Positions 1,513 to 19,566 are shown, counted from the stretch's first letter. The stretch: 56,600 bases of DNA from Candidatus Nomurabacteria bacterium (GCA_026395895.1 JAPLXV010000003.1:1-56600), one strand, 5' to 3'. A program made the numbers and translations. Notes: generated from the sequence alone by a model not told the origin.

Positions 1513-2037
1513 ATGCTTAATAAATTCAAAATTTTTACTGTTTTTATTGGCTGTCTATTATTTAGATTGCTCCCTTTAAGAGCACCTAATGTGGAGCCGA
1601 TAATGGCTTCTATTATGCCCCTAGGACGCAAATTTGGAGCCTTGACGGGTTTTTTATTTGGCTTCCTATCTATTATTATCTATGATCTTTTTACTCATTT
1701 TGGGGCTTGGACTTGGACGGTATCCATAACCTATGGGCTTGTTGGAATAGCTTCTTTTTTTTATTTTAAAAGGTTTAAATCTTCAGCTTTTAACTTTGCA
1801 GTTTTCGCATTTTTTGCCACCATAATTTTTGATTTAATAACTGGAGTTTTATTTGCTCCAATGTTTGGGCAAACTATGCTTAATGCTTTAGTTATGCAAA
1901 TTCCTTTTACTGCCCTGCACCTAGCAGGGAATATTGGTTTTGCACTTACTTTAAGTCCGCTTATAAACAAGTGGCTTGCGTCCGAACAATTTTTTGCACT
2001 AAAAACAAGTCCCTCATTGTCAGGAGCAAAAATTTAA
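1513..2037 (+). CDS. Polytopic membrane protein of unknown function (weak DUF6580 / ECF S-component-like N-terminal motif)
   Basis: 174 aa ORF, hydrophobic throughout, with an RLLPLRAPNVEPIMA motif near the N-terminus. It lies 6 nt after ligA. Confidence 0.7.
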   Translation: MLNKFKIFTVFIGCLLFRLLPLRAPNVEPIMASIMPLGRKFGALTGFLFGFLSIIIYDLFTHFGAWTWTVSITYGLVGIASFFYFKRFKSSAFNFAVFAFFATIIFDLITGVLFAPMFGQTMLNALVMQIPFTALHLAGNIGFALTLSPLINKWLASEQFFALKTSPSLSGAKI

Positions 2038-3649
2038 TGTAGATTAAGAACATGGAGGCGTCGCATAGCGGTCTAGTGCACCATCTTGGAAAGGTGGCAG
2101 ACCTGAAAGGGTTTCGAGAGTTCAAATCTCTCCGCCTCCGCAATTTTTCAAAAAGGGTTTCCGAATGCAAAATGGGGTCGGCGCGAAGCGCCGACACTAA
2201 TGTATTTCCCCCGCCGAATTCAGAATCCAAAAGGGTTTTCCACGCTCCGCGTGGCTCAAAAAGTACGGTTCGATCTTTAATTAAAAAGTTCGAACCGACT
2301 TTTTTAAACAAATGAAGATTTTCTTCATTTGTTTTCTCGTTTGCCAATTCCATATTGTATATATTGGCTTTTAGGAATTTGTCGGTAAGTTCGAACCGAT
2401 TATGAGATTTTTTCTCAAAAGCTAGTAATTTCTCTTTGAGAAGCTGTTTTGAGCTAACCAACTTGTTTTTAGATTCGCGATATTCGTCGAGTGAAAGTGC
2501 ATTTTCAAGATAAGCGTTCATCAGCTTCTCAACTTTTGAATCCAAAAGAGAAATTTCATCTTTTGTTTTTTGAGAAAAAATCTCACTCGATTGATTTTCT
2601 GATTGTCGGTCTTTCTCATTTTCGACAATCATCCAATTTGCCCAATCGAGTGGCGAAGAAACTTTTTTGATTTCTTCCTTAATTTGAGAAGTGATGATTT
2701 CCTTACGAACATATTTTTGCAAACAAGGATTTTTCCGTTTGGTACAGCGAAGATAATTATGACCTTTTTGTGTTTCGGTAGTTATAAAACATCCACATTC
2801 TCCACAACGGAAAAATCCTCTATACAAAAATGGTTTCAATCCTTTGCTATGCGGTTTAGATTTTCGGCTCATCACTTCTTGAACAGAATCAAAAAGTTTC
2901 TTTGTGATAATCGGCTTGTGCTTTCCTTCGTATATTTCACCACCATATCTCATCAAGCCAGTGAATATCGGATTTCTCAAAATTTGTTGGTAGTTGGAAA
3001 CGGAAAGCACCTTTCCATTCTTTCTACTCAATCCAAGAGCGTTAAACTTATCGTGGAGCTGTCGCAAAGTGAAATTTCCAGTTGCGTAGGCCTCAAATGT
3101 TTTCTTGATTAACGGAGCAATATTTTCATCTGGTACTATTCCAGCACCTTTCACATTTACATAACCCAGAGGCGACATTTGAGGCCATATACCGTCTTTC
3201 ACTTTGTTTCTGTGCCCACGCTTGATATTCTCACTCAAATTGTCCACATAGTACTTGGATTGCGAAAAAGCAATGGAAAGCATGAACTTACCTTGTGGAG
3301 TTGTATCACACCAGAAAGTTGGAAAATTAAGCTCGGCAATTTTTCCCGTATCGAGCAAATATATTATCTTTCCACCATCAACAGAATTACGAGCAAGGCG
3401 GTCTGGATGCCACGCTAAAATTCCACTTGCCTCATTTGCTTCGATACGGAGAAGCATTTCATTAAATACTGGCCGACCCGGAGCTTTAGCGGTTTGTTTC
3501 TCCACGAAAATATCTACAACCTCAATTTGTTCTTTAACCGCTAACTCTTTGAGTTCGGCCAGTTGGTCTGAAATGCTTCTAACTTGCCGATCTTCTGTGT
3601 CGGTAGATTTTCTAGTGTATATAAAAAATTTTCTAGTTTGGTTATTCAT
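1961..3649 (-). CDS. Large serine recombinase (integrase); ORF reads through attL and antisense to tRNA-Ser
   Basis: N-terminal resolvase motif IYTRKSTDTEDRQ..SISDQ, a recombinase domain, a zinc ribbon (CGECGC...LRCTKRKNPC) and a coiled coil. There is no stop before 1961, so the last ~100 codons come from the X arm, the tRNA antisense strand and the 3' end of the preceding gene. Confidence 0.9.
   Translation of the reverse strand: MNNQTRKFFIYTRKSTDTEDRQVRSISDQLAELKELAVKEQIEVVDIFVEKQTAKAPGRPVFNEMLLRIEANEASGILAWHPDRLARNSVDGGKIIYLLDTGKIAELNFPTFWCDTTPQGKFMLSIAFSQSKYYVDNLSENIKRGHRNKVKDGIWPQMSPLGYVNVKGAGIVPDENIAPLIKKTFEAYATGNFTLRQLHDKFNALGLSRKNGKVLSVSNYQQILRNPIFTGLMRYGGEIYEGKHKPIITKKLFDSVQEVMSRKSKPHSKGLKPFLYRGFFRCGECGCFITTETQKGHNYLRCTKRKNPCLQKYVRKEIITSQIKEEIKKVSSPLDWANWMIVENEKDRQSENQSSEIFSQKTKDEISLLDSKVEKLMNAYLENALSLDEYRESKNKLVSSKQLLKEKLLAFEKKSHNRFELTDKFLKANIYNMELANEKTNEENLHLFKKVGSNFLIKDRTVLFEPRGAWKTLLDSEFGGGNTLVSALRADPILHSETLFEKLRRRRDLNSRNPFRSATFPRWCTRPLCDASMFLIYIKFLLLTMRDLFLVQKIVRTQATCL
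2054..2140 (+). tRNA. tRNA-Ser (anticodon GGA), no encoded CCA
   Basis: Acceptor GGAGGCG/CGCCTCC. Anticodon stem CCATC/GGTGG with loop TTGGAAA. Long variable arm. T arm GAGAG-TTCAAAT-CTCTC. Discriminator G at 2140. Confidence 0.9.
2144..2257 (+). repeat. X arm (P' arm of the att site), diverged inverted repeat of 3671-3784
   Basis: Collinear with the reverse complement of 3671-3784. Both encode EPRGAW....GGN...ALRAD....SE.LFEKL and keep the hairpins CCACGC-GGA-GCGTGG and GTCGGCGC-TTC-GCGCCGAC (CGGCAC-TTC-GTGCCG in X'). Confidence 0.75.
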
Positions 3650-3670
3650 ATTGTTGTATTGGCTAGCGAG

Positions 3671-3784
3671 GAGCCACGCGGAGCGTGGCGAATCCTTTCA
3701 GAATCAGGATTTTTTGGGGGGAATTCAGAACAGACGGCACTTCGTGCCGATCATTTTTTTGGTTCCGAAGCCCTTTTCGAAAAA
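3671..3784 (-). repeat. X' arm, inverted copy of the X arm
   Basis: See 2144-2257. It abuts core TTGCGG at 3785-3790. Confidence 0.75.
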
Positions 3785-3790
3785 TTGCGG

Positions 3791-4016
3791 TATTCATTGT
3801 ACAAAATTCGAACCTTTTTTGAAAGCAATCCTGATGAAGAAATCTGAAACAATGCGGACGAAGTTTTGCGGAAACAATTTTCTGGGGAAAGGATTCCGCA
3901 AAACTTCGGCTGATTCCTTTTTTCTGAATTCGGATGTCGCAAGCGGAGGAGGAGGGGTCTGGGGAGGAATCCTCCGCTTGCTCCTCTTTTTGTTTTGGCA
4001 AAATTCGGGCGGGCTT
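3791..4016 (+). repeat. Y arm: 226 bp inverted repeat, near-identical to 6046-6271
   Basis: I count 4 mismatches against the reverse complement of 6046-6271. Perfect internal stems CGAAGTTTTGCGGAA 3859-3873 / TTCCGCAAAACTTCG 3894-3908 and GCAAGCGGAGGA 3939-3950 / TCCTCCGCTTGC 3970-3981. Confidence 0.9.
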
Positions 4017-4032
4017 CCATAAAAAATACAGA

Positions 4033-4061
4033 TTGATAAAATCCATAATTTTTGCTATCAT
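4033..4061 (+). promoter_or_regulatory. Candidate sigma-70 promoter for the element cargo operon
   Basis: TTGATA 4033-4038, 17 nt spacer, TATCAT 4056-4061, about 60 nt upstream of the XRE gene. Confidence 0.35.
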
Positions 4062-4120
4062 TGTTTTGTGAGCAAAGAAAGTAATCACTCATAAGATAAT
4101 ACTATCAAAGTTTGGATACT

Positions 4121-4318
4121 ATGGCAACTATATCAGAAAACATAAAACGAATACGAACAAAACAAGGATTGACGCAAGACGACTTGTCGAAGAAAGCGGA
4201 CATCAAATACTCTACCCTGACAAAAATTGAGGGTGGCGTCGTTACCAAACCAAGCGTTCAAACAATTCAAAAAATCGCCAAGTCGTTAGGCGTTTCCATT
4301 GAGGAATTATTAAAATAA
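4121..4318 (+). CDS. XRE-family helix-turn-helix transcriptional regulator
   Basis: NIKRIRTKQGLTQDDLSKKADIKYSTLTKIEGG..KPSVQTIQKIAKSLGVSIEELL is a classic HTH_3 pattern. ATG at 4121 is preferred over the TTG at 4112 in the track. Confidence 0.85.
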   Translation: MATISENIKRIRTKQGLTQDDLSKKADIKYSTLTKIEGGVVTKPSVQTIQKIAKSLGVSIEELLK

Positions 4319-4329
4319 CTTAAAAAATT

Positions 4330-4941
4330 ATGTATATACCACTTTGGATAATTGTTATCGGTGTCGTCGTATATTTCTTTTGGGCTAAAAACAAAAAAGA
4401 AAAACCGGAACACAAAAAAGAAGCAACCCCGCCTTTAAATGACAAAAGAACAAGTTTGAATCCTTTATTTTCTGAAGAAGAAATAGCTCGCAAAAAAGAA
4501 ACCGCAGACAAATGGCAAGAATATGTTGTGCAGTATTTTGATGAGTTGTTCAATCAAGAAAAAAAAGAAGTAGAAGCTCACCAGAAATCTGGTAAAGATA
4601 AGGACACTTTCAAGCCAAGTGAAAAACTTATAGGCATTATTCAAAAACAATCAATGTCATTATTGGGACGAAATAATGCAATGAAAGATTATCGAAAAAT
4701 GATTGAATCCAATATTGCTATTATTAACGGAGGAGAAATTGAGAAAGTGGAAAAAACATATTGGGATCAAATGTGCCATATTCCTTACGATAACTTTGAC
4801 ATTATTTATAACCCCGATATTTATTTGGACGATAAAGAAATGAAGGAAATGTACAATAGCAATATGGAGCATCGCAAGAAATTCTGGAAAGACAGTTGGG
4901 ACTACATTCTTAAAAAAGAGTATGTGCAGAAAGAAGACTAA
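4330..4941 (+). CDS. Hypothetical protein with N-terminal transmembrane anchor (element cargo)
   Basis: 203 aa ORF with N-terminal IPLWIIVIGVVVYFFW, then a charged K/E-rich region. I recognise no family. Confidence 0.6.
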   Translation: MYIPLWIIVIGVVVYFFWAKNKKEKPEHKKEATPPLNDKRTSLNPLFSEEEIARKKETADKWQEYVVQYFDELFNQEKKEVEAHQKSGKDKDTFKPSEKLIGIIQKQSMSLLGRNNAMKDYRKMIESNIAIINGGEIEKVEKTYWDQMCHIPYDNFDIIYNPDIYLDDKEMKEMYNSNMEHRKKFWKDSWDYILKKEYVQKED

Positions 4942-4965
4942 TTATTAAAATAACTTAAATACACT

Positions 4966-5502
4966 ATGGACAAAAATAATATAAAACCAAAAGAATTATT
5001 TGAGAAATTAAAATCGGTTGGATTAGCCGAAGAAGTAAGCCCATTTTTATTAAAAGGAATAGATACTCACACTGAAAAAGATAATTTGGGTGGGTATTTA
5101 GTGTTAGAAGATCTAAAAGATTTTATTAAGAAAAAACTACCGTCCCTAGAGCAAAAAATAAGTGGCTGGGCAAAAGGAGGAATGCGTTCTTATACTAAAG
5201 ATGAGTTACTTGCATACGAACAAAGCAAGGTGCTTATTGATTTGCTTGAATCAACGGGTGGAAACGGCGAAAAACTTAGGGAATATTGGTTATCACATTG
5301 TCCAACACAACACAAAACAATCAAGGAATCAAAATTGTTTGACTCAAATAGTGAAGAAACAGAAGTTTTTGATAAAGTTCTTGGAAAAATCGTGAAAGAT
5401 GGTGGTGACGAAAATGATGAGAATTTTTTAAAGGAAGTTGAAAAGCGTTTGGGACACCCAATCAAAAACTTTTTTGATTGGTCGCTTCCTAGCGAAAAAT
5501 AA
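4966..5502 (+). CDS. Hypothetical protein (element cargo)
   Basis: 178 aa ORF on the same strand and tightly spaced. I recognise no family. Confidence 0.6.
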   Translation: MDKNNIKPKELFEKLKSVGLAEEVSPFLLKGIDTHTEKDNLGGYLVLEDLKDFIKKKLPSLEQKISGWAKGGMRSYTKDELLAYEQSKVLIDLLESTGGNGEKLREYWLSHCPTQHKTIKESKLFDSNSEETEVFDKVLGKIVKDGGDENDENFLKEVEKRLGHPIKNFFDWSLPSEK

Positions 5503-5503
5503 A

Positions 5504-6040
5504 GTGGAATTTTCAGAAATTCTTAAAAGTATAGAAAGTAAGTCTACTAAAGCAAACCATGAGTTGATTTGGGCTTATTTTTTTATTTTTCACTTAAACA
5601 AAGAAAAATCTTTTGACTATGAAGTTGAGGAAGGTCCAAATGACTTAACCGATGTTTATGCAAAATCTAAAAGCGAAAAGTTTCCAGTTTTGAAATTACA
5701 ACTTACATGGGCAAAAGAAAAAGATTTCAGTCCTAAAATAGTAATTAAGGATTTGAAGTTTAGTACAGAAATTATTTTAGAAGCCGTTAAAAGAAAATAC
5801 GAAAAGTATGAAAAACAAGGTAAAGCGGATTCACTAAATGAAATAATTCTTGTTATACAAGGCGACCTTCCAAGTGGGTGGGATGATTTAGTTGATGATA
5901 AAAAAATAAAAGAAGAAATTGTAAAATATCCTTTTCGTGGAATTTATTACATTACTCCACCTGGAACTAAATCATCCTTGAAAGATAGAACGCCTATTAT
6001 GCATAACGGATTCGTTCTATGTTTCAAGGAGGCATTTTAA
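5504..6040 (+). CDS. Hypothetical protein (element cargo); start uncertain (GTG 5504 or ATG 5438)
   Basis: The ORF is open over 5438-6040. GTG at 5504 lies 1 nt after the upstream stop, whereas ATG at 5438 would overlap by 65 nt. Confidence 0.55.
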   Translation: MEFSEILKSIESKSTKANHELIWAYFFIFHLNKEKSFDYEVEEGPNDLTDVYAKSKSEKFPVLKLQLTWAKEKDFSPKIVIKDLKFSTEIILEAVKRKYEKYEKQGKADSLNEIILVIQGDLPSGWDDLVDDKKIKEEIVKYPFRGIYYITPPGTKSSLKDRTPIMHNGFVLCFKEAF

Positions 6041-6045
6041 TTTAT

Positions 6046-6271
6046 AAGCCCGCCCGAATTTCGCCAAAACAAAAAGAGGAGCAAGCGGAGGATTCCTCCC
6101 CAGACCCCTCCTCCTCCGCTTGCGACATCCGAATTCGGAAAAAAGGAATCAGCCGAAGTTTTGCGGAATCCTTTCCCCAGAAAATTGTTTCCGCAAAACT
6201 TCGTCCTCATTGTTTCAGATTTCTTCATCGGGATTGCTTTCAAAAAAGGTTCGAATTTTGTACAATGAATA
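6046..6271 (-). repeat. Y' arm, inverted copy of 3791-4016, abutting the attR core at 6272-6277
   Basis: See 3791-4016. Confidence 0.9.
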
Positions 6272-6307
6272 CCGCAAATGGTTTTTTTATGCTAAAATTG
6301 TAGGTAT

Positions 6308-6805
6308 ATGGAACAAAATAAAAACTTGGGTTATATTTTAGGATTATTAAGATTAATAATAGGTTGGGTTTTCTTGTGGGCTTTTATTGATAAATTATTT
6401 GGTTTGGGTTTTGCCACAATAGCTGAAAAATCTTGGCTCGCCGGAGTTTCTCCGACTGCCGGATTTTTGCAATTCGGCGTGCATGGCCCTTTTGCCGATT
6501 TCTTTCACAGTCTGGCTGGTCTTCCGTTGATAGATTGGTTATTTATGCTCGGTTTATTATTTATTGGCGTTTCTTTGATGTTCGGTATTTTTATGAAGCT
6601 AGGTGGTTTTTCCGGAATAATTATGTTGGTTCTTATGTATGGAGCTCTTGGATTATCTCCGGCTAATAACCCACTGATAGATGAGCACATCATTTATATT
6701 CTAGTTATTTTTGTTTTGATGATGACAAACTCCGGACAATATTGGGGTTTTGGTAAATGGTGGGAGGGTACTTCTTTTGTGCAAAAATATAAGTTTTTAA
6801 AATAG
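6308..6805 (+). CDS. DoxX-family membrane protein
   Basis: LGLLRLIIGWVFLWAFIDKLFG motif, four hydrophobic segments, 165 aa. Confidence 0.8.
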   Translation: MEQNKNLGYILGLLRLIIGWVFLWAFIDKLFGLGFATIAEKSWLAGVSPTAGFLQFGVHGPFADFFHSLAGLPLIDWLFMLGLLFIGVSLMFGIFMKLGGFSGIIMLVLMYGALGLSPANNPLIDEHIIYILVIFVLMMTNSGQYWGFGKWWEGTSFVQKYKFLK

Positions 6806-6816
6806 TCGTAAAATTA

Positions 6817-6954
6817 TTAGAAAAATAATGTAACGAAGTGAAATATATTTTTCTTAACCCTGTTAAATAATTTTTGCAAGGTAAAAATTGCCCGAAGGGC
6901 ATTTAACAGGGTGATGATTTTTATACTCATTACATTCGTTAAAAATCAATCATG
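6817..6954 (+). ncRNA. Structured leader element, copy 1 (ends at the ATG of the cupin gene)
   Basis: Shares TTAGAAAAATAA...ATATTTTTCTTAACCC..GTTAAATAATTTT...TTTAACAGGGTGATGATTTT...AAAATCAATCATG with 27631-27776. There is a 12 bp stem 6857-6868/6901-6912 enclosing two hairpins. Confidence 0.55.
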
Positions 6955-9715: not shown

Positions 9716-11530
9716 ATGCTGATTTCTTATAAATGGTTAAAAAATTATGTTCCAGATTTACCAGAGCCAAATAAATTGGTAGATATTTTTACATTTCATC
9801 TTTGTGAAGTAGAAGGAACAAAAAAAACAGAAGACGATACCATTTTTGATTTAAATATTTTGCCGGATAGAGCACATGACTTGCTATCTTATAGGGGAGT
9901 AGCTAGGGACTTAGCAGGGCTTCTGGATATAGAATATAAAGACATAGAGTATAAAATTGAAGTAGGTGGAACTACAAAGCTTTCTATAAAAGTAGAAAGT
10001 GAAAATTGCCGTAGATATATGGGTAGAATAATAAAAAAGGTAGAGGTTTTACCTTCCCCAGACTGGATGAGGAATTATCTTTTATCGATGGACCAACGCT
10101 CAATAAATAATTTAGTTGACGCTTCTAATATTGTTATGTTCGACAGAGGAAATCCTATTCATGTTTTTGATTTAGATAAAGTAGAGGGTAGTATAATAAT
10201 TCGCCAAGCAAAAGAAGGAGAAAAAATGACTACACTAGATAATAAGGAAGTTAAATTAAGTCCTTCAAATATGGTTATTGCCGACGAAAAAAATATTTTG
10301 GCTCTTGCTGGGGTGAAGGGTGGAAAAATAGCAGAAGTAGATGAAAATACAAAAAATATAATTATTGAAGTTGCCAATTTTGATCCGATAAGCGTGAGAA
10401 AAACTTCCAAAGAAGTAAATATATTTACTGACGCAGTAAAGAGATTTGAAAATGATTTATCTCCTGAAGTAGCAAGTGATGCGATAAATGATATGAGCGC
10501 TTTAGTTTTAGAGATGTGTAGAGGTGCTATCTTAGAAGAGGTAGTGGATGTTTATACAAAAAAACAAGAGAAGATAAAATTATCTTTTGATATAAAAAAG
10601 ATATCTAAAAGATTAGGTTTAGATATTTCTATTACTACAGTTCAAGACATATTAAAACGTTTTGGTGTTCTATATAAAAACACTGGTAACAATTTTGAGA
10701 TTATTGTTCCCGATATGAGGCTTGATCTAAAAACAAAAGAAGATATGTCTGAAGAAATAATAAGAATTTTAGGATACGATAAAATAAAACCAAAAATTCC
10801 CAAAATAAATTTTAAACCACAAGTAAACGAGGTATATGCCAAAATTTCTTGGGCAAGAAATAAACTTTTAAACGAGGGATATAGTGAAGTGATGACTTAT
10901 ACTTTTTGTAATAAAGGAGAAGTGGAAGTGCTTGCTTCTGCTTCAGATAAGAAATTCTTAAGAACAAATTTGAGTGATGGATTAAAAGAAAGTCTAAAAT
11001 TAAATCAACTAAATATGCCGTTGCTCGAGATGGATGAAATAAAAATTTTTGAAATAGGAACTGTTTTTTTGGAAGATAAAGAACAGATGAATGTTTGTTA
11101 TGCAGATAAGAAAAATATTACAGAAGTTTCTTTGGAAACGTTTTGTATGAATTCTCCTCTTGAGGAGTACTCCGACTTAAAGTTGGAGGGAGGTGGAGGT
11201 GTTTTCCACCCCGCCTTCGGCACCCCTCAAGAGGGGAATAAATTCAAACTCTGGTCTCTATTTCCATTTATTGTTCGTGACATTGCAGTTTGGGTTCCGG
11301 AAGAAATAAAAAGTGTAGATGTGGAAAAAGTCATAAAAAATAGTATGGGAGAGCTTGTAATTCGAGGTCCAGAACTCTTTGATCAGTTCAAAAAAGATGG
11401 CAAAATATCCTATGCTTTCAGGCTAGTTTTTCAGTCCTACGATAGGACCCTTACAGATGCTGAAATAAACGAAATTATGACTAAAATAACCAATAAAATC
11501 AAGGAGAAAAATGATTGGCAAGTAAGGTAG
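9716..11530 (+). CDS. pheT: Phenylalanine--tRNA ligase beta subunit (short form, no OB-fold tRNA-binding B2 domain)
   Basis: MLISYKWLKNYV start, ILPDRAHDLLSYRGVARDLA, B3/4 and B5 regions, and a C-terminal FDX-ACB-like domain (RDIAVWVPEE...YAFRLVFQS). Confidence 0.93.
   Translation: MLISYKWLKNYVPDLPEPNKLVDIFTFHLCEVEGTKKTEDDTIFDLNILPDRAHDLLSYRGVARDLAGLLDIEYKDIEYKIEVGGTTKLSIKVESENCRRYMGRIIKKVEVLPSPDWMRNYLLSMDQRSINNLVDASNIVMFDRGNPIHVFDLDKVEGSIIIRQAKEGEKMTTLDNKEVKLSPSNMVIADEKNILALAGVKGGKIAEVDENTKNIIIEVANFDPISVRKTSKEVNIFTDAVKRFENDLSPEVASDAINDMSALVLEMCRGAILEEVVDVYTKKQEKIKLSFDIKKISKRLGLDISITTVQDILKRFGVLYKNTGNNFEIIVPDMRLDLKTKEDMSEEIIRILGYDKIKPKIPKINFKPQVNEVYAKISWARNKLLNEGYSEVMTYTFCNKGEVEVLASASDKKFLRTNLSDGLKESLKLNQLNMPLLEMDEIKIFEIGTVFLEDKEQMNVCYADKKNITEVSLETFCMNSPLEEYSDLKLEGGGGVFHPAFGTPQEGNKFKLWSLFPFIVRDIAVWVPEEIKSVDVEKVIKNSMGELVIRGPELFDQFKKDGKISYAFRLVFQSYDRTLTDAEINEIMTKITNKIKEKNDWQVR
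11192..11242 (+). repeat. GC-rich hairpin module in frame in pheT (shares a 22-mer with trmD)
   Basis: GGTGGA 11192-11197 / TCCACC 11205-11210. CACCCCTCAAGAGGGGAATAAA at 11221-11242 is identical to 24809-24830. It encodes GGGVFHPAFGTPQEGNK. Confidence 0.8.
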
Positions 11531-11552
11531 TTTATGATATAATTGCCTTATA

Positions 11553-13631
11553 ATGGCTAAAGAAAAAGAAGTAAAAAATGGGCACCATTATGATGCCTCT
11601 GATATCTCTGTTTTAGAAGGACTTGATCCAGTCAGACGTCGTCCAGGAATGTATATCGGAACCACCGGTCCAGAAGGTTTACACCATCTCGTTTGGGAAA
11701 TTTTTGATAACTCGCGCGATGAAGCGATGGGTGGTTTTTGTGATGATATAGAAGTTGTCCTTTTGCCGAACAATCGTATTCGAGTGGCAGACAATGGGCG
11801 AGGTGTGCCTGTTGATATTCACAAAAAAACTAAAGTATCTGCTTTGGAAACTGTTATGACTACTCTGCATGCTGGAGGAAAATTCGGTGGAGAAGGCTAT
11901 AAAGTTTCTGGAGGCTTGCATGGAGTGGGAGCGTCAGTAGTAAATGCGCTCTCAATTTATTGTAAAGCGGAAGTGCATAAAGATGGTGGTAAATATATAC
12001 AAGAATATTCTCAAGGTAAGAAAAAAGCTTCAGTAAAAAAAATTGGGTCTTCAAAATTACATGGAACCATCATTACTTTTGAACCAGATCAAGAAATTTT
12101 TAAAGATATAAAGTTTGATTTAAGTACAATTATAAATCATATTCGTCAGCAAGCTTATTTAGTTAAAAAATTAAAAGTTTCAATAATAGATGCGCGAGGT
12201 TGGGATAATAAAAAAGGACTTGATGACTCTGACGTATTTTATTTTAGAGATCTTGGCATAGAACTTCCCTCCACTTCTTTTTATTTTGAAGGAGGATTGA
12301 TTTCTCTTATAAAATATTACAACAAGTTTCAAAAACCACTTCACGATCATATTTTTTATGTTGAAAAAGAATTGGACGGTGTGATGGTTGAAATAGCTTT
12401 ACAATATGTTGATGACATTGTTGATAGAATAATTCCTTTCGCAAATAATATACATACCGCTGAAGGTGGGACACATGTGACTGGTTTTAAAACTGCTCTT
12501 ACTCGCACCTTGAATACTTATTGTAAAAAGAATGAAATGATGAAAGATTCAGAAGGTGGATTTACCGGCGATGATGTACTGGAAGGTCTTACAGCTGTCA
12601 TTTCGGTGAAGTTAAGAGAGATACAATTTGAAGGTCAAACCAAGGCAAAATTAGGCTCTATGGAGGCCCAAGGAGCTGTTGGGACAATTTTTGGGGAGGC
12701 TTTTGCTGCTTTTCTAGAGGAAAACCCAGATGAAGCAAAAGCTATAATAAATAAGTCTATTTTGGCCTTAAAAGCTCGTAAAGCAGCCAAAGCGGCTAAA
12801 GATTCAGTTCTTCGTAAAGGTGCGCTTGAAGGTATGACCCTGCCTGGAAAATTAGCAGATTGCCAAAGCAAAAGTGCAGAAGATTCAGAATTATTTTTAG
12901 TAGAAGGAGATTCGGCAGGAGGTTCGGCTAAACAAGGTAGAGATAGACGCACTCAAGCCATTCTTCCGCTTCGTGGAAAAATTTTAAATGTTGAACGTGC
13001 TCGCATAGATAAAATGCTTGCTTCTAAAGAAGTAAGAGCTCTGGTTATTGCGATGGGTACTTCTATTGGAGACACTTTTGATCTTTCTAAAATGCGTTAT
13101 CACAAAATAATTATTGCCACAGATGCTGATGTGGACGGTGCGCACATTCGCACCCTTTTGCTGACTCTTTTTTATAGATATTTTAGACAAGTTGTGGACG
13201 CGGGCTATATTTATATTGCTCAACCACCACTTTATAAAATAAAAAGAGGAAAGGAAGTTAGTTATGCATATTCCGATGAAGAGAAAATAAAAATTATCGG
13301 TAAAGAAACAGATGTAAGTGAGATACAAGCGGTTAATGATGAAGAACCCCTACCCGACCTCCCCCTTAGTAAGGGGGAGGAGAAAGGAGGGGGTCTAGAG
13401 TCTAAACAATCTACAAAAATTCACATTCAGCGTTATAAAGGTCTCGGAGAAATGAACCCAGAAGAACTTTGGGAAACAACCATGGACCCAGCTCATCGAG
13501 TATTAAAAAAAGTAAATATAGATGATGCCGAAGAGGCCAACAAAATTTTTGAAATTCTGATGGGTTCCGAAGTTCCTCCTCGAAAATCCTTTATCCAATC
13601 TAATGCTAAATTAGCAGAGATTGATATTTAA
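11553..13631 (+). CDS. gyrB: DNA gyrase subunit B
   Basis: YDASDISVLEGLDPVRRRPGMYIG, GGLHGVGASVVNALS, EGDSAGGSAKQGRDR, PLRGKILNVE, QRYKGLGEMNPEELWETTMDP. Confidence 0.97.
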   Translation: MAKEKEVKNGHHYDASDISVLEGLDPVRRRPGMYIGTTGPEGLHHLVWEIFDNSRDEAMGGFCDDIEVVLLPNNRIRVADNGRGVPVDIHKKTKVSALETVMTTLHAGGKFGGEGYKVSGGLHGVGASVVNALSIYCKAEVHKDGGKYIQEYSQGKKKASVKKIGSSKLHGTIITFEPDQEIFKDIKFDLSTIINHIRQQAYLVKKLKVSIIDARGWDNKKGLDDSDVFYFRDLGIELPSTSFYFEGGLISLIKYYNKFQKPLHDHIFYVEKELDGVMVEIALQYVDDIVDRIIPFANNIHTAEGGTHVTGFKTALTRTLNTYCKKNEMMKDSEGGFTGDDVLEGLTAVISVKLREIQFEGQTKAKLGSMEAQGAVGTIFGEAFAAFLEENPDEAKAIINKSILALKARKAAKAAKDSVLRKGALEGMTLPGKLADCQSKSAEDSELFLVEGDSAGGSAKQGRDRRTQAILPLRGKILNVERARIDKMLASKEVRALVIAMGTSIGDTFDLSKMRYHKIIIATDADVDGAHIRTLLLTLFYRYFRQVVDAGYIYIAQPPLYKIKRGKEVSYAYSDEEKIKIIGKETDVSEIQAVNDEEPLPDLPLSKGEEKGGGLESKQSTKIHIQRYKGLGEMNPEELWETTMDPAHRVLKKVNIDDAEEANKIFEILMGSEVPPRKSFIQSNAKLAEIDI
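13346..13394 (+). repeat. GC-rich palindromic module in frame in gyrB (family 3)
   Basis: 10 bp stem CCTCCCCCTT 13358-13367 / AAGGGGGAGG 13371-13380. Outer pair ACCCC 13346-13350 / GGGGT 13390-13394. It encodes PLPDLPLSKGEEKGGG just upstream of the RYKGLGEMNP motif. Confidence 0.8.
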
Positions 13632-17418: not shown

Positions 17419-19566
17419 ATGCGACTAAAAAACCTTGAAATAAATGGCTTTAAATCATTTTCTAAAAAAACTGTTTTGGAGTTTCAAAATTCGATTGTGG
17501 CTATTGTCGGTCCCAATGGATCTGGTAAATCAAATGTAGTGGAAGCTTTGCGTTTTGTTTTAGGCGAACAGTCAATGAAATCAATGCGTGGGTCATTGGG
17601 AGCTGATTTGATTTTTAAAGGGTCAAAAAACTTACCCAAAAGTTCCCGAGCAACTGCTACTATATATTTTAATAACTCTGATAAAATTTTTAAACTTTCT
17701 AATGAAACAGGAGAAAATATAAATTTAAATTATGATGTTATTTCAATTTCTCGTGAAGTTTTTTCTGATGGCTTAAATAAATATATTTTGAATGGTTCAG
17801 AAGTAAGATTAAAAGATATTAATAATCTTTTATCCTCAGTTAATATTGGTTCTTCTGGGCACCATATTATTTCGCAAGGTGAGGCGGACAGAATTCTAAA
17901 TGCTTCTCCTAGGGATAGAAGGGAAATGGTAGAAGATGCTCTTGGACTTAAAATTTACCAATATAAAATAAAAGAAGCGCAACGCAAATTAGAAAGAACT
18001 ACCGACAATATGAAAGAGGTTTCACTTTTGCGTCGAGAAAATGCTCCGCATTTAAATTTTCTAAAAAAACAAGTAGATAAATTTGAAAAAGCAAAAGAAA
18101 TGCAGGTAACATTGTTATCTCTTTATAAAGAATACTTAAAGAAAGAAAGTGTTTATTTAGAAAAAGAACAATCAAATTTACTTTCAGAAAAAAATAAAAT
18201 TTCTTTAGAGTTGAAAAACGTAAAAGAGAAAATCTCTGATACAGATGAAACTGAAAAGAGAGGAGAAAGTGAAAAAGAAAAAGAATTAAAAGTATTTGAA
18301 AAAAAGATAAGTGAAATTCATGCAGTCAAAAATGAAATAGAACGCAAATTGGGAAGAATTGAAGGAATTCTTGAATCAAAAGGAAATAAAGTTAAAATTT
18401 CTGGTAAATGTCCTTTATGTGGCAGTGAAATTAAGGAAAAAGAAGAAGGTCAGATAGAAAAGAGACAAAATGATGAAAAAGAATTGGAAGAATTAAAAAA
18501 TTCTCAAGCTGGTATTCTAGCTGAAATGGAGAATTTAAAAAATGAGGAGGGAAATATTTTTGAAAAAATAGAAATATTGAAAAAAGAAATTAATCAAGAG
18601 AATGAAGCTCTGCATATAAAAGAAAAGGAGAAATTTAATTTTAGAGTTAGGCACCAAGAGTTATCCTCTTCTTTAGATCTAATTTCTGTCAAAGAACAAA
18701 ATCTTAAAAGAGAGATAGAATCTTTCGAAAATGAAATAAAAGAAGGTGAAGCTTTAATTGGAAGTGAAATTTTGTCTTATAAAAATTTTGAGGTGAATGA
18801 AATAATTGATAGAAATGCGCAAGAAGAATCAAGACGAAAAATTGAACGTATAAAAATGAAGTTAGAAGACGTTGGTGTGGGTGGAGGATCAGAAGTAATG
18901 AAAGAATATGAGGAAGTTTTTCAAAGAGATAATTTTTTAGCCAAAGAGATGGAAGATTTAGCTGTAAGTATAGAGTCTCTTCGAAAATTGATGGCAGATT
19001 TGAAAGAAAAAATAGATATAGAATTTAAAGAGGGTATTAAGAAAATAAATGTAGAGTTTGATAAATTCTTTTCTTTGATGTTTGGCGGAGGAACTGGCTA
19101 TCTTGCAATTGTTGTTGAAAGTAAAAAGAAGAAAGAAGCCCCGACGCTCGAAGAGGTCGGGGTCCCGACTCCTGATGAAGATCAGGACGTCGGGAAAGAA
19201 ATCGTTCCTGAACAAGGCATTGAAATTAATGTTTCGCTTCCACATAAAAAAGTGAAAGAACTGAATGCACTTTCTGGAGGAGAAAGGTCTCTTACCTCTA
19301 TTGCTCTTCTTTTTGCTATGTCCCAAGTAAATCCACCGCCATTTTTGGTACTTGATGAAACAGATGCTGCGCTAGACGAAGCAAATTCTCGCAAATATGG
19401 GGATATGCTAGAAAAACTCTCTCATCACTCTCAGCTTATAGTCGTTACTCATAATAGGGAAACAATGTCTCGCGCTGGCATTTTATATGGCGTCACTATA
19501 GGTTCCGATGGTGCCTCCAAACTTCTCTCTGTCAAACTGGACGAAGCCGCCGCAATTGCAAAGTAA
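17419..19566 (+). CDS. smc: SMC-family ATPase, short form (715 aa) with no recognisable hinge and a central CPLC motif
   Basis: SMC-type heads: GFKSFSKKTVLEF...GPNGSGKSNVVEALRFVLGEQS at the N-terminus and LSGGERSLTSIALLFAM...FLVLDETDAALDEAN...VVTHNRETM at the C-terminus. The middle is all coiled coil, with GKCPLCGSE at aa 331-334. Confidence 0.85.
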   Translation: MRLKNLEINGFKSFSKKTVLEFQNSIVAIVGPNGSGKSNVVEALRFVLGEQSMKSMRGSLGADLIFKGSKNLPKSSRATATIYFNNSDKIFKLSNETGENINLNYDVISISREVFSDGLNKYILNGSEVRLKDINNLLSSVNIGSSGHHIISQGEADRILNASPRDRREMVEDALGLKIYQYKIKEAQRKLERTTDNMKEVSLLRRENAPHLNFLKKQVDKFEKAKEMQVTLLSLYKEYLKKESVYLEKEQSNLLSEKNKISLELKNVKEKISDTDETEKRGESEKEKELKVFEKKISEIHAVKNEIERKLGRIEGILESKGNKVKISGKCPLCGSEIKEKEEGQIEKRQNDEKELEELKNSQAGILAEMENLKNEEGNIFEKIEILKKEINQENEALHIKEKEKFNFRVRHQELSSSLDLISVKEQNLKREIESFENEIKEGEALIGSEILSYKNFEVNEIIDRNAQEESRRKIERIKMKLEDVGVGGGSEVMKEYEEVFQRDNFLAKEMEDLAVSIESLRKLMADLKEKIDIEFKEGIKKINVEFDKFFSLMFGGGTGYLAIVVESKKKKEAPTLEEVGVPTPDEDQDVGKEIVPEQGIEINVSLPHKKVKELNALSGGERSLTSIALLFAMSQVNPPPFLVLDETDAALDEANSRKYGDMLEKLSHHSQLIVVTHNRETMSRAGILYGVTIGSDGASKLLSVKLDEAAAIAK
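19139..19195 (+). repeat. 57 nt double-hairpin module in frame in smc (family 1, TCCCGAC/GTCGGGA)
   Basis: CCCCGAC-N10-GTCGGGG, then TCCCGAC-[TCCTGAT GAAG ATCAGGA]-C-GTCGGGA. It encodes APTLEEVGVPTPDEDQDVGK. Confidence 0.85.

Follow-up and report, generated by a model that had tools for sequence, protein, structure and literature searches.

The stretch analysed here, hereafter the window, comprises 56,600 nucleotides (nt) of DNA from Candidatus Nomurabacteria bacterium (GCA_026395895.1 JAPLXV010000003.1:1-56600) and contains, on the plus strand at 3785-4016, an arm designated Y which recurs in inverted orientation on the minus strand at 6046-6277 (Y'). We consider it probable, on the evidence of sequence comparison, that Y and Y' are the two copies of the P arm of an attachment (att) site belonging to a 4.1-kb integrative element which occupies a tRNA-Ser(GGA) gene and is moved by a large serine recombinase. 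Y forms the arm on the element side of a serine-integrase att site and has conserved features beyond the half-site; it is present twice because the element keeps an inverted full site inside itself. A repeat search of the window returned the two arms as an inverted repeat of 232 nt, 98% complementary and with 2029 nt between the arms, while base-by-base comparison gave exactly four differences, at 3832 (T/C), 3855 (C/A), 3925 (T/C) and 4000 (A/G). The near-identity that a sequence-only reading had reported for a 226-nt arm, with the same count of four differences, is therefore upheld, and the arm is lengthened to 232 nt by the addition of a 6-nt core (TTGCGG/CCGCAA). The difference at 3832 is a synonymous third codon position (CCT/CCC), and the stems, loops and TTCGAA motif of Y are free of all four. 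The whole genome holds two copies of Y, both at the 4.1-kb element.

Organization of the element and its attachment sites

The element spans about 2144-6277 and lies at the 3' end of tRNA-Ser(GGA) (2054-2141, plus strand, identified by ARAGORN and the Rfam tRNA family), which is its integration target and provides the B half of attL. Three copies of the core mark its joints. Copy 1, CCGCAA at 2138-2143 (plus), recognized from the sequence and as the edge of the X/X' repeat, joins the tRNA 3' end to arm X; copy 2 at 3785-3790 (minus, reading TTGCGG on the plus strand) is a 6-nt overlap of X' and Y; and copy 3, again CCGCAA, joins Y' to the chromosome at 6272-6277 (plus). From these three cores follow the joints tRNA/X, X'/Y (inverted) and Y'/chromosome, of which the first is attL, the last is attR with Y' as its P arm, and the middle one is a complete inverted site composed like an intact attP, with Y as its P arm. 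Read on the opposite strand, the middle joint runs Y-core-X, which is the site expected on a circle arising from recombination of the two outer joints. The element consists of two modules, each between inverted half-sites, with the recombinase between X and X' and the cargo between Y and Y'. Arm X, the P' arm (2138-2257, minus), starts within the last tRNA bases; the conserved body of the recombinase, 464 amino acids (aa), occupies 2258-3649 (minus) within an open reading frame of 1961-3649; and X' (3671-3790, plus) repeats X in inverted orientation, upstream of the recombinase start and 21 nt away from it. The excised form would be a circle with two inverted attP copies, one of which is split by integration.

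An unoccupied site is found in G179, a genome of the same genus, where tRNA-Ser(GGA) ends in ...CCGCAA and is followed directly, with no element, by a flank similar to the chromosomal flank B' of the window (ATGGTTTTTTTATGCTAAAATTGTAGGTA; 6278-6306, plus) and by a cupin gene. The ends of the element are placed at the cores because in G179 the tRNA-Ser(GGA) gene ending in CCGCAA runs straight into this flank and the cupin gene, which in the window lies at 6952. A DoxX-like gene between element and cupin gene in the window (6308-6805) is absent from G179, where the cupin gene directly follows tRNA-Ser; it may represent a separate insertion or deletion.

The same design recurs among relatives of the recombinase, of which 154 were present in a one-genome-per-species collection (the best 80 loci were kept, at 79-96% aa identity to the window enzyme) and 417 in metagenomes (80 loci analysed). 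Across these 80 species-genome and 80 metagenome loci the layout recurs, with the canonical order Y-recombinase-tRNA-Ser in 41 and 50 respectively. All loci with enough flank have a 120-nt inverted repeat hugging the recombinase gene and, on the 5' side of the recombinase, a 105-405-nt inverted repeat around a cargo of 1.5-6.4 kb, the two repeats abutting at the core. When the recombinase modules are considered singly (81 from species genomes and 80 from metagenomes), their 3' side (X) adjoins tRNA-Ser in 60 and 64 and Y in 3 and 0, while their 5' side (X') adjoins tRNA-Ser in 6 and 0 and Y in 53 and 61. The departures from the canonical arrangement include modules that are flipped (tRNA/X' and X/Y, in loci L019 and L024), a module with Y on both sides (L076) and, in L040, L067 and L078 (around 9780-11600 in each), a module lying between two convergent tRNA-Ser genes with different anticodons. 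This last layout is as expected if the internal attP had recombined with a second tRNA-Ser gene, inverting the chromosome between. In the genomes of L040 and L067, Y arms are also found core-joined to non-tRNA flanks. The alternative X joints are not assembly guesses, because the 120-nt X arms are shorter than the largest k-mers of the assemblers; as read from these assemblies, they show that the cores do recombine, if rarely.

The position of the putative outer recognition motif relative to the core provides a further line of evidence. In 57 of 59 tRNA-Ser joints of the relatives the distance from the core to the start of a TTCGAA-like motif of the T arm is 12 nt. For TTCGAA in the Y arms the distance is 17 nt, 5 bp more than in the tRNA, although this comparison covers the left half only and the Y set was gathered partly with a pattern that itself fixes the 17-nt spacing. 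The spacing as read in the two kinds of sequence matches the published rule for serine integrases, by which the DBD2 motif is 5 bp nearer the centre in attB than it is in attP (PMC11722253). The recombinase itself contains the domains Resolvase (PF00239), Recombinase (PF07508) and Zn_ribbon_recom (PF13408), all scoring above the curated Pfam cut-offs.

In large serine integrase elements and prophages such as A118/LI, SPbeta SprA, Bxb1 and phiC31, recombination of attP with attB yields attL and attR. The element in the window resembles these systems in its three-domain recombinase, in integrating at a defined site through a short core common to both partners (CCGCAA), with attB found unoccupied in G179 and no long target duplication, and in having an outer motif that on the host (tRNA) side is nearer the core by about 5 bp, as judged from the left half. 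It departs from them in several respects. Where one attP per element would be expected, it keeps when integrated a second, complete, inverted attP, and the X'/Y site is complete in this form here and in all relatives with enough flank. Minimal att sites of such systems measure about 40-50 bp and have no accessory arms, whereas the element-side arms here are long, near-perfect inverted repeats (X 120 nt; Y about 200-270 nt, within 105-405 nt across the loci), and the P arm has conserved hairpins beyond the half-site. Finally, the integrase frame here crosses attP, so that integration changes the C-terminus. No directionality factor was recognized in the window, in which three non-HTH (helix-turn-helix) cargo proteins have no Pfam match; to our knowledge recombination directionality factors share no common fold.

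The recombinase frame and its tail in arm Y

In the integrated copy the recombinase frame meets no stop where the conserved protein ends and continues through arm X, which adds 40 codons, and through antisense tRNA-Ser to a stop at 1961, giving 98 extra codons in all. The frame is open over all 40 X codons in about 75 of 75 loci, and among relatives the position of the stop inside the tRNA is variable. Past the core the frame reads either antisense tRNA (RxRDSNSR...) or, where X is joined to Y, a short conserved tail. The tail comprises 18 residues and a stop (YSLYKIRTFFESNPDEEI followed by the stop codon) and shares 3791-3847 (plus) with the P-type half-site, whose TTCGAA lies at 3807-3812; the corresponding codons of Y' are at 6215-6271. 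It would form the recombinase C-terminus whenever X joins Y, and this native form of the enzyme ends in ...LFEKLRYSLYKIRTFFESNPDEEI. Recombinase, X and Y constitute one unbroken frame of 519-522 residues ending in the Y tail in L019, L024 and L076.

Coding by the tail is suggested by a comparison of 22 distinct tails, in which pN/pS is 0.54 in frame versus 0.75 and 0.99 in the other frames, and the proline codon occurs as CCT, CCA, CCG and CCC. The tail motif K(V/I/L)RxxF is kept, with different DNA, in recombinase families at 59%, 46% (tRNA-Trp target) and 39% identity. We infer that the tail would be translated when X is joined to Y, either in the circle or in a flipped recombinase module. 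A separate small protein reading from X' into Y was considered and rejected, as there is no conserved ATG and the upstream open length ranges from 2 to 84 codons. A conserved recombinase promoter, whether in proximal Y or divergent from the XRE promoter of the cargo, is not supported among the relatives; a TTCAAA-16-TACAAT match in Y is not conserved among them and the spacer between Y and the XRE gene measures only 60-108 nt.

Two loci bear on the integrity of the recombinase gene and on the composition of the arm. In L021 (10001-10717) the recombinase has a premature stop at codon 239, with both repeat pairs 99% intact. In L136 (G276:C8, 1650-7247), where a recombinase of 46% identity has tRNA-Trp as target, the X arms are of 78 nt and the Y arms of 109 nt; the Y arm of this family is composed of tail and hairpin 2 only, keeping the same tail motif and hairpin 2 loop.

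Conserved hairpins and alternative readings of arm Y

Distal to the tail, Y contains two hairpins. Hairpin 1 (3859-3908, plus) has a perfect 15-bp stem (3859-3873/3894-3908) and a 20-nt loop, ACAATTTTCTGGGGAAAGGA; hairpin 2 (3939-3981, plus) has a perfect 12-bp stem (3939-3950/3970-3981) and a 19-nt G-rich loop, GGAGGGGTCTGGGGAGGAA, and is followed by a T-rich run at 3982-3997. In Y' the copies of hairpins 2 and 1 lie at 6081-6123 and 6154-6203. Both perfect stems had been noticed beforehand; they can be read directly in the sequence and appear in the folding prediction as well. The arm is closed by an inner boundary box (GGCAAAATTCGGGCGGGCT; 3998-4016, plus), and relatives of type A end the repeat with ...AAATTCGGCGGCTA or ...AAATTCGGGCGGGCT.

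Comparison of the relatives, proposed earlier as a check for covariation in the Y arms, reveals stems that covary beneath near-invariant loops. The start of the hairpin 1 loop, ACAATTTnTCTGGGG, is kept on at least four different, fully paired stems, with the variants GGTTTTGCGAA/TTCGCAAAACC, GGCAGGGCGAA/TTCGCCCTGCC and CACCCCGCC/GGCGGGGTG among the relatives. The hairpin 2 loop is kept on several stems, namely five sequences, four of them distinct, in a 9-bp alignment, plus others in divergent families. In this trimmed alignment 100% of the cells are paired and both sides have changed in seven of the nine pairs, while shifted registers pair at 33-50%; the pair counts refer to the trimmed hairpin 2 alignment only, a small set of related sequences, and MAFFT alignment of whole Y arms mis-registers the stems. 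The earlier suggestion that Y serves a function beyond a minimal att site is thus borne out: Y has conserved codons that would give the recombinase another C-terminus, and its two conserved hairpins have stems that covary.

When 1.07 Mb of loci were searched with a covariance model built on hairpin 2, 45 matches were obtained, nearly all in identified Y arms, and three matches checked outside such arms were all in other inverted-repeat pairs. Among 301 sampled Patescibacteria genomes the model matched 30, with one to three copies each, often at contig ends. The loop is also present in the Y arms of the recombinase families at 59%, 46% and 39% identity. In about 22 of 23 elements its G-rich strand is read in the direction away from the core, but the loop is flipped in L022 and, in a second arm type, the G-rich loop occurs in either orientation. 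That the hairpin 2 loop varies so little points, to judge from these comparisons, to a partner that is specific and itself conserved; its strandedness would favour RNA or single-stranded DNA, although the flipped loops in L022 and the second arm type argue against a strict strand requirement.

Read outward from the core, Y comprises four parts. The first is a P-type half-site in which TTCGAA mimics the tRNA T arm, 5 bp farther out. The second, in the same bases, would be the last 18 codons and the stop of the recombinase for those states in which X is joined to Y (circle or flipped module), the frame in the integrated state entering antisense tRNA instead of the Y tail. The two GC-rich hairpins with conserved G-rich loops form the third part, and the conserved inner boundary the fourth. 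Our best guess is that the hairpins serve as the natural 3' end of the recombinase transcript, as stabiliser or terminator. As the hairpins point inward at each end of the cargo, they would also, we infer, insulate it from transcripts coming in from either side.

Several points weigh against this interpretation. In serine integrases attP is not expected to recombine with attL or attR, and since the known rules exclude these reactions the spare attP has no explained purpose. No excised circle or circular contig was seen: none of the 80 metagenome loci has a terminal overlap, and viral contigs held no close relative. The alternative joints are rare, with tRNA at the 5' side in 6 of about 130 recombinase modules, and the inverted cargo of L052 could be an assembly error, the repeat being longer than the assembler k-mer. 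Support for translation of the tail is modest: it comes from 15 codons that coincide with a protein-binding site, and in one relative a stop interrupts the tail. In an AlphaFold model of the full-length L024 recombinase (mean pLDDT, the predicted local distance difference test score, 58.7) the tail is a helix, but its pLDDT is no higher than about 56-64, and that of the part encoded by X stays under 50; this confidence is too low to show docking of the tail. The terminator idea is weak: hairpin 2 is followed in the window by TCCTCTTTTTGTTTTG, but this T-run is inconsistent in relatives, which often have only TTTCGG, and a terminator scan called neither hairpin because the loops exceed 8 nt. 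A plain terminator, moreover, has no need of an invariant loop, and template switching can make perfect stems in DNA palindromes with no selection on RNA.

A structured RNA encoded by distal Y (3848-4016), either a small RNA or a leader or 3' untranslated region element of recombinase or cargo transcripts, is possible but doubtful, and would be compatible with Y being an att arm. Its loops, with two GGAGG-like tracts, would pair bases or bind protein. The covarying stems under fixed loops, the hairpin 2 loop retained in families whose recombinases are 39-59% identical and the maintained strand orientation relative to the core are all consistent with this proposal, as is the fold of the C-rich strand, which compared with shuffled sequence has a z-score of -4.2; the G-rich strand, however, reaches only -1.8 and no conserved promoter was found. 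The loop flips in L022 and the second arm type again count against it, and DNA processes that correct palindromes can mimic covariation. Y is not a member of a known RNA family, as no Rfam family covers it: only two tRNAs reach the gathering score, and matches to microRNA hairpins are sub-threshold (E 0.26-0.93).

It is unlikely that the hairpins act at the level of DNA as an accessory platform, binding a conserved protein of the host or the element (the XRE regulator, for instance, or a directionality factor not recognised as such) or providing a single-strand priming signal, which the inverted repeat would put once on either strand. Such a platform would account for a loop whose conservation greatly exceeds that of the recombinase and of the target tRNA, as expected of a conserved partner, and the flips of the loop leave both arms of an element alike. 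The XRE gene is the sole conserved cargo gene, and a G-run motif (TGGGG..GGAAT) recurs three times on the same strand, at 3709-3730 in X' and at 3878-3897 and 3954-3974, one in each Y hairpin loop. Against these features, we know of no accessory sites in large serine integrases, and the loop is not palindromic, unlike the usual XRE operators; the idea rests on a proposed protein binding and a hypothetical single-stranded stage.

We think it quite unlikely, too, that these sequences define a class of serine-recombinase element with two modules and three sites, in which the spare inverted attP and the long arms are working parts. Three versions of this reading could be envisaged. In the first, which would suit bacteria that take up DNA by natural transformation, X would pair with X' and Y with Y' in a single strand, the stacked stems rebuilding attP, and the Y hairpins, present once per strand through the inverted repeat, would be a strand-independent priming or establishment signal. 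The second would be a circle like the yeast 2-micron plasmid. That plasmid carries FLP/FRT in 599-bp inverted repeats, and it replicates as a circle and does not integrate, FLP being a tyrosine recombinase. The excised circle described above would likewise have two unique segments and two inverted repeats of about 350 bp with the recombination site in mid-repeat, but it is deduced only from the integrated layout, and the recombinase is of the serine type and the element integrates. In the third version the integrase would be self-limiting, integration removing the native tail and a rare flip of the module restoring it.

The boundary of an invertible segment, one of two readings of the arm offered beforehand, applies only in part. 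Y does delimit a segment defined by the recombinase and ending at crossover cores, but a freely flipping switch is very unlikely. Under that explanation Y and Y' would be the sites of a regularly flipping phase-variation switch in which the recombinase often inverts the cargo, toggling expression of cargo or recombinase; an inverted cargo operon, for example, would read through Y and X' into the recombinase gene. Serine invertases such as cin of P1 (C segment) and gin of Mu (G segment) are small proteins, about 190 aa long and ending in an HTH, that require Fis and an enhancer; the repeats around their segments belong to the coding sequence of tail-fibre genes, and the segments are commonly found either way round. 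As in P1 and Mu, the serine recombinase gene here has as its neighbour a segment flanked by long inverted repeats, at whose ends the crossover site is found, and inversions do occur in the assemblies: L052 and L076 have a 2299-nt cargo of 99.5% identity in opposite orientation, in addition to the flipped modules of L019 and L024. Unlike in P1 and Mu, the enzyme is a large serine integrase with 464 conserved residues plus the tail and not a small invertase, the repeats are att arms, and orientation is strongly biased. In 32 of the 33 elements in which it could be placed, the XRE gene lies next to the arm nearer the recombinase and is directed away from that arm (32 canonical versus 1 inverted, orientations of cargo and module being called from assemblies), the sole inversion may be an assembly error, and the recombinase 3' end faces the tRNA in about 122 modules but the 5' side in only 6. 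The cargo also has its own promoter-like site inside the segment. Finally, a dispersed repeat (of miniature inverted-repeat transposable element, MITE, or repetitive extragenic palindromic, REP, type), an assembly artefact or a chance inverted repeat can be dismissed as highly improbable, given that Y occurs only twice in the genome and hairpin 2 at one to three copies in 10% of genomes (30/301), that the layout is found in more than 100 independent assemblies, and that a 232-nt match at 98% is far beyond chance.

Arm evolution, distribution and relation to other elements

Y/Y' and X/X' differ markedly in divergence within the window: X (2138-2257) and X' (3671-3790) form an inverted repeat of 120 nt with 31 mismatches (74% identity), in accord with the stronger divergence of the X arms noted before. 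The inference then drawn, that the asymmetry reflects ongoing homogenisation of Y and Y', stands insofar as both pairs of arms evolve in concert, but a special homogenisation of Y does not. Complete Y pairs in 24 species-genome and 17 metagenome loci (41 of 160) have a median identity of about 99.5%, and in 24 of 24 elements the two Y arms are closer to each other than to the arm of any other element. The asymmetry is not special to Y, because X and X' of the relatives are normally also 98-100% identical (median 99.2%, n=56), the 74% of the window being one of 13 outliers. The near-identity of Y and Y' is the norm of the family and is most likely produced by gene conversion between inverted repeats, with true inversion being rare. 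X of the window is nearest the arm type of L079, L033 and L019 (97-98%) and X' that of L038, L040 and L022 (92-93%); because they match the arm types of different elements, the recombinase module of the window is a hybrid, which would most simply have been made by homologous exchange within the conserved recombinase gene. The links once drawn from 12-mers that Y shares with the smc module (19170-19181) and with arm X (2214-2225) are rejected: the 12-mers are present, at chance level. Random 232-nt pieces of the window have a median of about four separate 12-mers in common with the rest of it, 95% have at least two, and Y has four; such matches are uninformative because random pieces of this AT-rich window match equally often. 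Y' is without both 12-mers because each of them spans a Y/Y' difference.

The relatives at 79-96% identity come from metagenome-assembled genomes labelled as many different groups of the candidate phyla radiation (CPR), and recombinase relatives occur in 135 of the 301 sampled Patescibacteria genomes (E below 1e-40), so that the family is widespread in these ultra-small bacteria. The cargo module of the window (4033-6040, plus) has a promoter-like site at 4033-4061, the XRE-family HTH gene at 4121-4318 and genes at 4330-4941, 4966-5502 and 5504-6040, the products of the last three having no Pfam match. An XRE HTH gene, present in 22 of 24 elements, is the only cargo gene that the elements have in common. 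In other elements the cargo includes an HpaII restriction-modification pair whose methylase is fused to RadC, a restriction-modification system of type III, ATPases (AAA_15 and AAA_13), a UvrD helicase or a cytochrome d1 protein. The elements would carry restriction-modification and other defence-type genes between CPR lineages, in which we know of no conjugation systems, and apparently can invert chromosome segments between tRNA-Ser genes. Six public Logan assemblies (L115-L120) have the exact cargo of the window as separate contigs of 0.9-2.1 kb, which are uninformative on orientation; the longest of them stop at the Y arms or slightly within them, which is the expected outcome when an inverted repeat exceeds the assembler k-mer.

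In archaea, integration splits the gene of SSV-type integrases, and the integrase of pTN3 is reported to invert chromosomes between tRNA genes (PMC8371274, PMC5495485). The present element is like the SSV type in having an att site inside the integrase gene, which integration alters, and the inversion between tRNA genes by pTN3 resembles the modules of L040, L067 and L078; unlike these tyrosine recombinases, only the C-terminal tail is exchanged here and a spare copy is kept. The literature searched holds no description of serine-integrase elements with an internal inverted attP, nor of these CPR elements. Serine integrases are major tools of genome engineering, and their att sites are thought to be short and without accessory parts. 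The family stands out for a live-looking second attP kept inside the integrated copy, for an integrase C-terminus that would depend on the state of integration, and for a strongly conserved hairpin attached to the att site.

The source genome contains a second element built in the same way, which is divided between two contig ends (C9:1-719 and C25:1-10137), the break falling in the recombinase gene. Its X arms are 96.7% identical and its Y arms, of about 260 nt, are unrelated to Y except for one hairpin loop. Its cargo is of about 8.5 kb, and one of its Y arms has a 34-nt tandem duplication (C25, 1231-1298) which the other arm is without. Elements of different recombinase families (59% and 39% identity) stand in tandem in L043 (3529-11593) and L062 (3037-15062), and in L043 one element's X arm is joined to the Y' arm of its neighbour. 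A third type of partner at the X core (...GGTTAGGTACCC...TTGTAAGGGTATTTTAGCA...), which is neither tRNA nor Y arm and has no Rfam match, occurs at about 1673-1770 in L025, after X in L148 and L092 and before X' in L083; it could be another target site or another arm type.

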